From positions 3,817 through 67,816 of the forward strand of contig MGZB01000011.1 of assembly GCA_001801995.1 (NCBI GenBank): DNA of 64,000 nucleotides. Direction: 5' to 3'. This DNA is from Gammaproteobacteria bacterium RIFOXYD12_FULL_61_37. GTDB lineage: Bacteria > Pseudomonadota > Gammaproteobacteria > Chromatiales > Chromatiaceae. Shown piece by piece: positions 49,524 through 57,294 of this stretch (within the stretch, counting starts at the first letter, position 1; every line of letters begins with the position of its first letter). The position numbers were made by a program, and so were the translations under genes. The notes beneath the pieces were generated by a model. That model was given only the letters and a program-made list of their open reading frames with translations. It searched no databases and was not told the DNA's origin.

Positions 49524-49628
49524 TATGGGCAAGCCTTCATTCGTCGATTTAGTCGCCACCGATCCTGGCCCGATAATGATGCCTGTTATCGAAACTCCCT
49601 GCTATCCTTCAACGCAATCCAGTCATCG
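49524..49628 (+). repeat. ~105-bp repeat, copy 1 (inverted partner at 57191-57294)
   Basis: tatgggcaagccttcattcgtcgatttagtcgccaccgatcctggcccgataatgatgcctgttatcgaaactccctgctatccttcaacgcaatccagtcatcg matches the reverse complement of 57191-57294, apart from a few substitutions and one 1-nt indel. Confidence 0.9.
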
Positions 49629-49641
49629 CGCGAGACGAAAG

Positions 49642-49952
49642 ATGAGTGCCACAGCCCCCAAAATACCGTTCAGCAGGGACGATTATCTCGTTTGGGAGAC
49701 CGAGCAGAGGTGCTCTCGCCCTCCACTGAACGCTTCGACCGGGGCGGGAGGTTCGCCCACTATCGCCGCATCGAGACCCTGCGGGAATACCTCCTCCTCG
49801 ACCCTGACCGTCCCGCCGCCGAGTTGTTCCGCCTCGACGCCAGCGGGCATTGGGTGCTTTATACCTTCGGGCCTGATGAGGAGGTGGAGCTTACGAGTCT
49901 CTCGCTGAAACTCCCCGTGGCAGATCTTTTTGAAGACGTTGAACCAGAATAG
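49642..49952 (+). pseudogene. Uma2-family (DUF820) endonuclease remnant with an internal deletion and frameshift
   Basis: The N-terminal piece MSATAPKIPFSRDDYLVWETEQR is in one frame. It joins directly to the C-terminal piece AEVLSPSTERFDRGGRFAHYRRIETLREYLLLD in another frame. The central part of the domain is missing. Confidence 0.75.
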
Positions 49953-49987
49953 GCCTCGCCGGTATCAATCCGCTTCAACAAGTTGGG

Positions 49988-50551
49988 TTACTCCGCCCAC
50001 AAGGCGCCTAACGGAAAGGTCACGGCGTCGAAAGGTTCCGCCGCCACCTCGGCCTCATCGACGAAGCTGCCCAGCAGCAGCCATTGACCATTGCTGAGCT
50101 TGAATGCCTCCAGGGTCCTGGCGGTGGGATCGACCAGCCAGCAGTAGGCCACTCCGTTTTCGGCATAGCGGGGCATCTTCAGCATGCGGTCGGTACGCGC
50201 AGTGGAAGGCGACAGGACCTCGCAGATCCAATCGGGCGCCAGCTCGAACCAGGCCGTATCCGGCAGGGATGGCAGCCGTTCGCGCCGCCAACCGGCCAAG
50301 TCCGGCACCAGGATGTCGGGACCGAAGTGGAGTTCGGGTTCGTCCAGTATCCACCAGCCGCCGGGGCCGCCGCCCCTTCTCTTGGAGAAGGGGCCGACTA
50401 ACTCTTCGGTCAATGAAGAACTGGCCATTGCATGTTTTGGCGCCGGCCTCGGATGGGTATATAGCTCGCCGTCGATGATCTCCCCCACCCGATTGGCGGG
50501 CAGGGAGAACAGGTCCTCATAACGGGCGGAGCGTAGTTGTGGGTTGGTCAT
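49988..50551 (-). CDS. Uma2-family endonuclease (DUF820)
   Basis: 187 aa. PDLAGW..., APDWICEVLSPSTARTDRMLKMPRYAENGVAYCWLVDP. Confidence 0.85.
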   Translation of the reverse strand: MTNPQLRSARYEDLFSLPANRVGEIIDGELYTHPRPAPKHAMASSSLTEELVGPFSKRRGGGPGGWWILDEPELHFGPDILVPDLAGWRRERLPSLPDTAWFELAPDWICEVLSPSTARTDRMLKMPRYAENGVAYCWLVDPTARTLEAFKLSNGQWLLLGSFVDEAEVAAEPFDAVTFPLGALWAE

Positions 50552-50567
50552 GGCGGTTTTCTCCAGA

Positions 50568-51134
50568 TTACCCGGTCATTTCGACATCTTGATAAATGCT
50601 GTCTAGATCCAGACGCTCTTCCAGGCAATCGAGCTGCACCTGGCCCGACTCATAGCATTCCACCTGCCAGTCCGTTGAACGCCGGTAGATTTCAACGCGC
50701 CGGGCATCCTGTGCCACCAGTAGATATTCCTGCAAACTGGGCAGGGCCTGGTAGGCCAGGAACTTTTCCCGGCGGTCGATCCGTTCGGTGGACTCGGACA
50801 GCACTTCGATGATCAAGCAGGGTGTTCTGCAAAAATAGGTTTCCCGGTCATTCGGGTCGCAGCTCAGTAAAAGGTCCGGATAATAGAAGATCTGGCTGTT
50901 TCCAATTTGCAGTTGGACCTTCATGTCCGAGGTGAAAAGTTGGCAATGCCGCCGCCGGGCCGCAGGGGTCAGGACGAACGCCAGCGCATTGACAATCAAA
51001 CCATGGGTCCGGCTGGCGCCGCCCATCGCATAGACCTGGCCGTTGATGAATTCGTGACGTATCTCGCTGTGCTGCTCTCCAGCAAGGTAGTCATCGACGG
51101 AGATGGGGTCCTTATATGCTGTTCTCGATGTCAT
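50568..51134 (-). CDS. Uma2-family endonuclease (DUF820)
   Basis: ISVDDYLAGEQHSEIRHEFINGQVYAM..., PCLIIEVLSESTERIDRREKFLAYQALPSLQEYLLV. An upstream in-frame ATG at 51179 is also possible. Confidence 0.85.
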   Translation of the reverse strand: MTSRTAYKDPISVDDYLAGEQHSEIRHEFINGQVYAMGGASRTHGLIVNALAFVLTPAARRRHCQLFTSDMKVQLQIGNSQIFYYPDLLLSCDPNDRETYFCRTPCLIIEVLSESTERIDRREKFLAYQALPSLQEYLLVAQDARRVEIYRRSTDWQVECYESGQVQLDCLEERLDLDSIYQDVEMTG

Positions 51135-51240
51135 GTCCCAATCCTCGAAAGAATGATGATTGAGTTTAACAGACGGCATCTGTCCTTACCGGATCGGTGA
51201 AGTTTCCATGCGAGACAGCGCAACCCATCGGGTTTTTACA

Positions 51241-55355: not shown

Positions 55356-55382
55356 AAAAAGTCCTGGAAAAACAGGGTGGGA

Positions 55383-56126
55383 TTATTCCCCATGACCCGC
55401 CTCCGTGAAGGCTTGCAGCTCATCCCGCAGGTTCGCTGCCAGAATCCAGGGGCCGATGGCGATGTGCAGGCCCGCGATGAGGCTGTCATCCTGCTCGAAA
55501 CGAAGCGGGGATTCGTTGCCGGTCAGGGTGGCAAGGGCCTGGGTCAACCGGACCCGTTGCCCCTCGGTCAGGGGAAAGGCACTGGTGACGGTCATGGCAT
55601 TGCTCCCGGCCGGGTGGTTGCGCAGGGTGGCGATTTTGGTGGGGGGCAGTTGGCGTAATTCGGCAATGGCCAGCTCGACCAGCCGCGCCTCGGTCTCGGG
55701 GCCAGCCGCCGATGCCAGCAGTCGGGCGGCGAAGCGGGCCGCCTGGGCCAGGGCGGTTTGTTCCAGCCCACGCAGGGCGTCGGCCCGGCGGTGTTCCTCG
55801 GCCACGCGGCCCTTCTCCCGCTCCTTGTCGAGGTCGGCGTGCAGCTCGGCCCGGCGCTGGGTCCGTTCTGTCTCGATCTCACGGATCAGGGCCTCGCGCG
55901 CCAGGCGGCGCTCCTGTTCCCAGTCGGCGAGGCGGCCTTCGTACTGGTGACGCAGGGCCTCGGCGTTTTCGTGCAGCCCCTTGGCGTCGGACAGGGTCTT
56001 TTCGATACCGGCCCGGCGGCGGGCGATCACCTCCTGCACCGGACGGAAGAGAAAGTGTTTCAAGATCCACACCAGGACCAGGAAATTGACCATCTCCAGG
56101 AGAAAGGTGGTCCAGTTCAGTTCCAC
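55383..56126 (-). CDS. atpF: N-type ATPase b subunit (long, with a delta-like C-terminal part)
   Basis: 247 aa. One N-terminal transmembrane helix (FLLEMVNFLVLVWILKHFLF), then a long charged helix and an extra C-terminal domain. Confidence 0.8.
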   Translation of the reverse strand: MELNWTTFLLEMVNFLVLVWILKHFLFRPVQEVIARRRAGIEKTLSDAKGLHENAEALRHQYEGRLADWEQERRLAREALIREIETERTQRRAELHADLDKEREKGRVAEEHRRADALRGLEQTALAQAARFAARLLASAAGPETEARLVELAIAELRQLPPTKIATLRNHPAGSNAMTVTSAFPLTEGQRVRLTQALATLTGNESPLRFEQDDSLIAGLHIAIGPWILAANLRDELQAFTEAGHGE

Positions 56127-56141
56127 GGCCAGTCCCTCCGC

Positions 56142-56408
56142 CTACTTCAGCAGGTATTCGAGCAGGGGGTTGCGGAACAGCACGATGAGCACGATGACCA
56201 GCACATAGATGGCCAGGGACTCGATCATGGCCAGGCCGATGAAGAGGGTGCGCATGATCGAGCGTTCCGCCTCGGGCTGGCGCGCGAGGGCGTCCAGGGC
56301 GCGGCTGATGGCCCAGCCCATGGCAATGGCCGGGACCATGACCCCGAGGGCAATGGCGGCGATGGCGGCGACGGTCGAGACTTGGATGAAGCTGGATAGC
56401 TCGGGCAT
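56142..56408 (-). CDS. atpE: ATPase c subunit
   Basis: 88 aa helical hairpin with an ARQPE loop and the carboxylate in [10 protein letters not shown]. Confidence 0.9.
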
Positions 56409-56411
56409 GGG

Positions 56412-57092
56412 TTAGTCCTCCGGGTTGCGCTGTTGTGACTGGATACCGCCGGCGACGTAGATGAGCGCCAGCATGCCGAAGATATAGGCCTGCACCAGGG
56501 CCTCGACGATGTGCAGCATCAGGATGGGCACCGGGGCCAGGAAGCCCGCCACCAGCAGGATCAGCAGGGCCGCCATCTCCAGGCTCATCATGTTGCCGAA
56601 GAGCCGCACCGCCAGGGCGATGGTGCGGGTGACCTCGCCGATCAGGTGGAAGGGCAGCAGGATCGGGCTCGGCGTCAGGTAGTGGCGCAGGTAACCCTTC
56701 AGGCCCTGGATGCGGATACCGAACCAGTGGGTCGAGAGAAAGACCAAAATTGCCAGGGCCGCTGTGGCGGAGAGATCCCGCGTGGGCGAATCGAGCCCGG
56801 GGACCAGGCCGATCAGGTTGGCGATTGCCAGGAAAATCCAGAGTCCACCGATGAAGGGCATGATCCGATACACATGCTGAGGACTGACGGCGGCGACCGC
56901 CTCCTCGACGGCGCAGACCAGACCCTCAGCCGCCGTTTGCGCCGGACCCGGATCGATCGCCAAACGGCGCGAGACCGGCCAGGCAACCAGCCAAATCAGG
57001 GCCATGATCCCCCAGGTGGTCACCACCGTATCGGTGATCCTCAGGGGACCCAGTTGCAGCACCGGTTCGATGAGAAGGCTTACGTCGGACAT
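56412..57092 (-). CDS. atpB: ATPase a subunit
   Basis: 226 aa polytopic protein with the conserved Arg in ALAVRLFGNMMS. Confidence 0.9.
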   Translation of the reverse strand: MSDVSLLIEPVLQLGPLRITDTVVTTWGIMALIWLVAWPVSRRLAIDPGPAQTAAEGLVCAVEEAVAAVSPQHVYRIMPFIGGLWIFLAIANLIGLVPGLDSPTRDLSATAALAILVFLSTHWFGIRIQGLKGYLRHYLTPSPILLPFHLIGEVTRTIALAVRLFGNMMSLEMAALLILLVAGFLAPVPILMLHIVEALVQAYIFGMLALIYVAGGIQSQQRNPED

Positions 57093-57190
57093 GGGCGGGC
57101 TCCGGTTAGAGGCTTGAGGCTTTAGTCACTATAAATCCCCCGAACCCGTTCGCTCCCGTCATCGCCTGGGTGATATTCCGCCCCATCCTT

Positions 57191-57294
57191 CGATGACGGG
57201 ACTGCGTTGAAGGATAGCAGGGAGTTTCGATAACAGGCATCATTATCGGCCAGGATCGGTGGCGACTAAATCGGCGAATGAAGGCTTGCCCATA
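57191..57294 (-). repeat. ~105-bp repeat, copy 2 (inverted partner of 49524-49628)
   Basis: See copy 1. This copy lies about 98 nt upstream of atpB and faces it. Confidence 0.9.

Follow-up and report, generated by a model that had tools for sequence, protein, structure and literature searches.

A 105-bp inverted repeat in a gammaproteobacterial genome is likely the scar of an inversion that duplicated a gene spacer

Introduction

How do two nearly identical sequences of about 105 bp come to lie in inverted orientation at the two ends of a 7.6-kb gene segment, and do they still move it? The question is raised by a window of 64,000 nucleotides (the whole stretch of DNA analysed: positions 3,817 to 67,816 of contig MGZB01000011.1, assembly GCA_001801995.1) from Gammaproteobacteria bacterium RIFOXYD12_FULL_61_37, a member of the Chromatiaceae. 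The repeat copies enclose Uma2 genes, a pilin locus and part of an alternate F-type ATPase operon, with uup on the left outer flank and gtrA, a GT2 glycosyltransferase gene and sdh genes on the right. A first-pass annotation, made from the letters of the window, had offered a portable promoter or leader, the end of a decayed mobile element, or the scar or substrate of a recombination event that broke up the ATPase operon. Our analysis points to a scar: the two copies are likely what remains of an inversion that duplicated one of its own breakpoints, the repeat having been a single-copy spacer in the ancestor.

The repeat and its copy number

In the following, R is the 105-bp repeat sequence, and R1 and R2 are its two copies. 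G000 is the genome of this window, G001 the one same-genus genome, and L-numbers are contigs of relatives or metagenomes. The two copies are as follows.

49524..49628, + strand: repeat copy 1 (R1), 105 nt; inner adjacency to Uma2 ancestral, outer junction with the uup-side spacer novel
57191..57294, - strand: repeat copy 2 (R2), 104 nt; outer adjacency to gtrA ancestral, inner junction with the atpB-side spacer novel

Alignment of R1 with the reverse complement of R2 gave 101 identities across 105/104 nt, or about 96% identity. The copies differ by three substitutions, at repeat positions 21, 94 and 98, and by a 1-nt indel at position 46, and their longest perfect tract is 47 nt. Both borders of the repeat are sharp, with no similarity in the sequence beyond either end. 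The inner end of R1 lies 13 nt ahead of the ATG of a Uma2 pseudogene (49642), and that of R2 lies 98 nt ahead of the atpB ATG (57092). On the outer sides, 132 nt separate R1 from the true start of uup (49391, MPIISLKN), and R2 is 8 nt from the first possible gtrA ATG (57303) and 35 nt from the start chosen by the gene caller (57330). The first-pass annotation had described near-identical inverted copies with a few substitutions and a 1-nt indel, and had given the same distances to Uma2 and atpB; this description was correct to the nucleotide in its coordinates.

A search of the whole genome (3.47 Mb) revealed R1 and R2 as the sole copies of the 105-bp sequence. BLAST with the 105-mer found no match in 60 relatives, G001 included, in 380 genomes of the order, or in plasmid and phage collections. 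Two scans of about 185,000 species genomes with exact probes, taken from its core and from its outer end, were negative as well. When the 105-mer was aligned by a sensitive local method to the upstream regions of uup, atpB, gtrA and Uma2 in G001 and a further genome, G004, scores stayed at the level of shuffled sequences, the exception being a 14-mer near a G001 Uma2 start, which was likewise not significant against shuffles.

A single-copy spacer in related strains

Relatives closer than G001 were located through near-identical variants of the GtrA and AtpB proteins. In three contigs from three samples, L117 (ERZ27300256), L115 (SRR22387867) and L116 (SRR16110249), a single R lies between gtrA and an intact Uma2 gene of 187-188 aa, and this intact gene is the orthologue of the Uma2 pseudogene in the window. 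The flanks of the single copy match both copies of the window, one on each side: 8 nt as on the outer side of R2, and 13 nt as on the inner side of R1. The gene order in L117 is Uma2a (+), Uma2 (-), R, gtrA, GT2, sdhC, and compared with it the window has the block R-Uma2-Uma2a turned round with respect to gtrA-GT2-sdh. The gtrA flank is still found at R2 and the Uma2 flank at R1, and the other two flanks are unrelated sequence. To judge from these sequences, gtrA and Uma2 are divergent genes with R as their native spacer, which was single-copy in the ancestor.

The derived order gtrA-R2-atpB is also present in L109 (96% AtpB, ERZ27300256) and L114 (JGI 3300025522). R was not found upstream of atpB in G001, L110 and L111, where atpI or atpR-like genes occupy that place, nor upstream of uup in G001. 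No empty site was seen in the synteny of G001 and G004, where every neighbourhood differs and the G001 contigs end at uup and GT2; the content of the interval from uup to sdh is hence not shared with these relatives. A search for a longer ancestral-type contig by means of the intact Uma2 protein returned the same contig only.

Substitutions within R allow the event to be placed in time. Position 61 is T in R1, in R2 and in the R2 of L109 and L114, and C in every single-copy version. At positions 94 and 98 the ancestral A..A is found in R1 and G..C in every R2, including those of L109 and L114. Two further changes, C21 in R2 and the extra C at 46 in R1, are limited to this strain. The order that follows from these substitutions is C61T, duplication, the R2 changes and finally the split of the strains. 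Site patterns across 1.4 kb of gtrA-GT2 agree in grouping G000 with L114 against L117 and L118 (10 sites, the alternative splits having 1 and 0), and in L115 and L116, which are more distant (94%), R is single-copy. On this sequence evidence, a single event in the common lineage of this strain and its nearest relatives would fit. The derived arrangement has since persisted through about 2% of divergence (L109, L114).

A probable inversion with one duplicated breakpoint

The usual explanation for an inversion in bacteria is recombination between repeats that were already present, such as insertion sequence (IS) elements or ribosomal RNA (rRNA) operons. The single-copy contigs suggest another course, which we consider likely. 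The ancestor would have had the order Uma2a (rightward), Uma2 (leftward), R, gtrA, GT2 and sdhC, the last three rightward. An inversion of the block that ends in Uma2-R would then have taken place in the lineage of this strain and its nearest relatives, presumably with the whole 7.6 kb turned in one step. The breakpoint at R would have been staggered over the entire spacer, so that R came to bracket the 7.6-kb segment as two inverted copies, with copy 2 retaining the gtrA side and copy 1 the Uma2 side. As for the physical route, the most likely one would be staggered nicks about 105 nt apart, followed by fill-in and end-joining, or an equivalent template switch during replication. The repeats would today be a scar, and at best a poor substrate for homologous recombination. 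The first-pass suggestion of a recombination scar is therefore upheld in the form of a breakpoint duplication, as seen from the single-copy contigs of ancestral type; its other half, that the ATPase operon was cut here, is not (see below).

The geometry has a close counterpart in flies. In 17 of 29 Drosophila inversions, inverted duplications of ancestrally unique sequence were found at the breakpoints, for which staggered breaks with fill-in and end-joining were proposed as the cause; they span 46 bp to 1.9 kb, and in 12 of 18 cases only one of the two breakpoints was duplicated (Ranz et al., 2007, PLoS Biol 5:e152, PMC1885836). R resembles them in being ancestrally unique and non-repetitive, in its present position in inverted orientation at both ends of an inverted segment, and in that each copy keeps one ancestral neighbour; its 105 bp fall within the Drosophila range, and one breakpoint is duplicated. 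In contrast to the fly cases, the setting is a bacterium and not a germ line, the segment measures 7.6 kb and not megabases, and the genome is without Ku. Inversions flanked by IS elements in bacteria, whether made by intramolecular replicative transposition or by recombination between inverted IS or rRNA copies, also leave an inverted segment bracketed by inverted repeats, but R is a 105-bp gene spacer with no transposase, target duplication or further copies.

Several observations weigh against the proposed inversion. The ancestral second breakpoint, at which the uup spacer would abut the atpB spacer, was seen in no strain, as all of the ancestral-type contigs stop short of uup and atpB. For the 97 nt and 60 nt that adjoin the novel junctions there is no homologue anywhere searched, so a history of several steps is possible. 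Ku is absent from this genome and there is no microhomology at either novel junction, which leaves the end-joining step without an obvious enzyme, and a literature search found no bacterial description of a staggered-break duplication. In addition, one metagenome contig, L082, shows a recombinant junction of gtrA, R and the Uma2 pseudogene, and a scan for consensus sigma-70 promoters gives no support to the promoter content expected of R.

With both the ancestral and the derived arrangement in hand, this locus indicates that an inversion in a bacterium can duplicate a short unique spacer at its breakpoint, a pattern well known from Drosophila inversions and rarely documented in prokaryotes. 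It also holds a practical lesson for annotation: neither a mobile element nor a switch should be assumed when accessory genes are bracketed by the two inverted copies of a repeat. The biological consequences here look minor. The event left an upstream region for both gtrA and Uma2, and put a copy of R ahead of an alternate ATPase operon that was already fragmented. It is an ordinary but cleanly resolved rearrangement scar.

Is the segment a live switch?

A different history would have two steps. A second R would first have arisen near uup or atpB, and the 7.6 kb would then invert, perhaps repeatedly, by homologous recombination between the copies, each flip swapping the genes downstream of the gtrA/Uma2 spacer. 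Inverted repeats of such size can support RecA-dependent inversion, and the first-pass annotation had pointed out that inverted copies can invert the segment between them. The organism is a Sedimenticolaceae-like, dsr-carrying sulfur oxidiser that is present in many independent aquifer-metagenome assemblies (ENA, NCBI, JGI and Logan, by exact-protein look-ups). We classed the contigs that cross a repeat copy by their outer flank, their inner flank and the four variant sites. Eleven contigs join gtrA to R2 with the R2 variants; ten of them reach the atpB flank, and one, L108, ends 6 nt past the repeat. Ten more contigs read uup-R1-Uma2 pseudogene. All 21 crossings are parental, in the same orientation and with the variants perfectly phased, and none shows gene conversion. 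At least one scaffold (75 kb) spans both copies of R. The short-k Logan contigs break inside the repeat.

The case for flipping comes from contig L082 (Ga0208961_1024963, 1214 nt), obtained in a scan of metagenomes. Here the gtrA flank and the outer variants of R2 (C21 and the deletion at 46) are joined to the inner variants of R1 (A94, A98) and to the deleted Uma2 pseudogene, which is the exact product of a crossover between R2 and R1 within their 47-nt identical core. We first accepted this contig as evidence of inversion, and then rejected it as a double chimera. Over its first 126 nt L082 does not differ from the parental gtrA-R2 path, and this length equals k-1 for k=127. In its last 335 nt it follows the Uma2 paralogue of contig C12 instead, at 100% identity, and the change falls at a 21-nt stretch common to the two Uma2 paralogues. 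L108, which is parental, comes from the metagenome that yielded L082. L082 has low coverage and changes template twice, each time at a short stretch of identity, and is most likely a misassembly; that it reflects a real minority arrangement is doubtful. A single recombinant metagenome contig is weak evidence of inversion when the identical core is shorter than typical assembly k-mers.

Taken together, a two-step origin with a live switch appears unlikely. Its exact recombinant is a double chimera, the other crossings are parental and phased in 21 of 21 cases, and the derived arrangement has persisted through the divergence of L109 and L114. Pfam scans of 20 open reading frames (ORFs; 46.6-61.3 kb) found no recombinase or invertase in or beside the segment. 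The expectation that the segment can invert finds no credible support in these assemblies. It is somewhat more improbable still that L082 is real and that the copies form a low-frequency, recombinase-independent switch, the same scar also documenting a Ku-independent duplicative inversion in a bacterium. If that were true, flips would change the genes that follow each face of the spacer, trading atpB-E-F-A and the pilin block against the Uma2 cluster. The locus resembles the site-specific switches of Hin/Gin, FimB/E and the Moraxella pilin invertase Piv in that inverted repeats bracket a segment containing pilin genes. Unlike those systems, however, it has no recombinase gene nearby, its repeats lie far from the pilins, both pilins point in one orientation, and a single orientation is credibly seen in the 21 crossings.

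Promoter, leader and RNA readings

As the complete spacer between gtrA and Uma2, R presumably holds the promoters of both genes. Within its inner 37 nt we noted one motif.

49600..49608, + strand: TGCTATCCT, an extended -10-like motif and candidate native Uma2 promoter; the R2 copy of the motif faces atpB

These inner 37 nt (repeat positions 69-105) are invariant in all single-copy and R1 versions, where the flanking genes are about 94% identical. In G001, TCCCTGCTATTCTT stands at the same spacing upstream of a Uma2 homologue, a match that is not significant against shuffles. A sigma-70 scan called no promoter in either copy, TGCTATCCT included, and a terminator scan called none. An Rfam scan of 47-60 kb had no match in the repeats, and folding of both strands of both copies gave structures no better than shuffles (z 0 to +0.8). 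The first-pass annotation had named a -10 box (gataat), an upstream box (ttagtc) and a small hairpin (cgataa-N9-ttatcg). All three strings are present but count for nothing as evidence, as the scan called no promoter there and folding was no better than in shuffles. TTAGTC matches TTGACA at only 2 of 6 positions, and the outer half of R is variable in related strains, in which a 10-nt deletion removes ttagtc and a substitution breaks a hairpin arm. A portable promoter or leader, as then proposed, is borne out only insofar as R is the native gtrA/Uma2 spacer and a copy of it now stands ahead of atpB; the -35/-10 pair and the hairpin on which the proposal was built are not conserved.

Could R then have been copied because it was useful, as a regulatory cassette carrying a promoter or leader to the orphaned atpB-E-F-A fragment or to uup? 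A divergent spacer must hold the gtrA and Uma2 promoters, the half with TGCTATCCT is invariant across strains that are 94% identical elsewhere, and in R2 this half faces atpB, whose own upstream genes are lost. On the sequence, the orphaned fragment may be read from the copy of the Uma2 promoter in R2. Selection for such a duplication nevertheless seems improbable, to a greater degree than the live switch. There are two copies only, with no spread to other loci or genomes, the sigma-70 scan is empty, and the gene that follows R1 is a pseudogene. The ATPase fragment is without beta, gamma and the 3' end of alpha, which makes selection for its expression doubtful, and an inversion by-product explains the geometry without selection.

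Mobile-element, dispersed-repeat and artefact readings

Inverted 105-bp ends around accessory-looking cargo, part of it low in G+C, recall the terminal inverted repeats of a mobile element, decayed or non-autonomous, with which the 7.6 kb would have arrived. This explanation is very improbable. In related strains R has a native place, as a single copy between gtrA and Uma2, and it occurs in no other genome, plasmid or phage searched. There is no transposase or recombinase inside the segment, and no target-site duplication is seen, the flanks ending in aggctc on one side and beginning with atgaac on the other not being duplicated. The ATPase block is chromosomal in relatives. The first-pass suggestion of a decayed element end is not supported, with no transposase, target-site duplication or copy elsewhere.

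There is next to no chance that R is a dispersed repeat of the repetitive extragenic palindromic or miniature inverted-repeat transposable element type or an assembly artefact, since, although the genome is rich in other dispersed palindromic repeats, those occur in about 19 (55214-55357) and about 26 (53540-53614) places against two for R, far from the dozens of copies once considered, and since the copies differ at four sites that are reproduced with phased variants in more than 10 independent assemblies.

The break in the ATPase operon

The alternate ATPase operon appears to have been interrupted elsewhere. Homology to the atpI-atpB region of relatives stops at window position 57125, about 60-65 nt inward of R2, so the operon was cut at a separate junction and not at the repeat. 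On sequence comparison, this break is a separate junction, older than the repeat or independent of it. The proposal that recombination at the repeat broke the operon does not agree with this position.

In the comparison operons, the order is atpC-atpI-atpB in L111, and in G001 an atpR-like ORF lies ahead of atpB. In G000 the operon is found in two loci. The gene for epsilon, atpC, survives near the beginning of contig C45 (158-558, -), adjoining valS, and an atpI-like gene survives near the beginning of contig C19 (~115-386, +), followed by a 554-aa gene; a hairpin repeat probably connects the two, as it does in L111. Neither beta nor gamma of the N type was detectable in G000. ATPase-like matches past the right end of the window were considered as the missing N-type beta and rejected, being V-type B and D subunits. 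These V-type D and B genes lie at the contig end (C11:74081-76079), and the genome accordingly has an F-type, a fragmentary alternate F-type and a V-type ATPase. In G001 (L078, G001:C130; 5959-9186 and 9270-9389), a 40-aa atpR-like ORF lies ahead of atpB, together with a divergent gene for a 1075-aa protein that has a DNA methyltransferase-like region, and after atpA come a 292-aa ORF without a family match and then pilB.

Genes and spacers in and around the segment

The remaining features, from left to right in window coordinates, are given below.

47508..49391, - strand: uup, ABC-F ATPase, 627 aa; left outer flank, true start MPIISLKN
49392..49523, no strand: spacer from uup to R1; homology to G001 ends at 49426, the remaining 97 nt without homologue
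49642..49952, + strand: Uma2 pseudogene; 248-nt internal deletion and frameshift compared with the intact 188-aa orthologue in L117
49988..50551, - strand: Uma2 gene, 187 aa; its orthologue is convergent to the intact Uma2 in ancestral-type L117
50568..51179, - strand: Uma2 gene, 188-203 aa; intact
51241..53322, - strand: pilin, TfpX/TfpZ accessory gene (51849-52625) and second pilin; low G+C, 0.52-0.58
53540..53614, no strand: dispersed hairpin repeat, 75 nt, just past the truncated atpA; about 26 places in the genome
53658..55118, - strand: alternate F-type ATPase alpha, its 3' end truncated (486 aa; G001, 498 aa); G001 homology stops at 53673
55214..55357, no strand: dispersed palindromic repeat, 144 nt, inserted in the atpF-atpA interval; found in about 19 places of the genome
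55383..57092, - strand: alternate F-type ATPase genes atpF (b/delta fusion), atpE (c) and atpB (a)
57093..57190, no strand: spacer from atpB to R2; 33 nt adjoining atpB homologous to relatives, 60-65 nt adjoining R2 without homologue
57330..58710 (gtrA-GT2), + strand: gtrA (127 aa from 57330, or 136 aa from 57303) and GT2 glycosyltransferase, then sdhCDAB; right outer flank

The gene content read in the first pass is confirmed: three Uma2 genes, one of them broken, two pilins with a TfpX/TfpZ gene, and a fragment of an alternate F-type ATPase with a, c, b/delta and alpha. G+C falls to 0.52-0.58 across the pilin and Uma2 part of the segment. The deletion in the Uma2 pseudogene maps to window 49704-49707, corresponding to L117 897-1148; it is present in every assembly of this strain, and related strains keep the intact 188-aa gene. 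The 132-nt and 98-nt spacers beside the repeats have no further copies in the genome.

An ORF of 124 aa ('orf124') at the interval between atpF and atpA (55119-55382) was considered as a gene and rejected as spurious, since it covers the dispersed 144-nt palindromic repeat. That repeat is found in tens of places in G001 and in another genome, G003. Further copies of the 75-nt hairpin repeat lie in G001, in the atpC-atpI interval of L111 and at the beginning of contig C45. A dispersed repeat lies between GT2 and sdhC in L117 (2735-2862) and is missing from G000, which suggests that such repeats are still moving between close strains.

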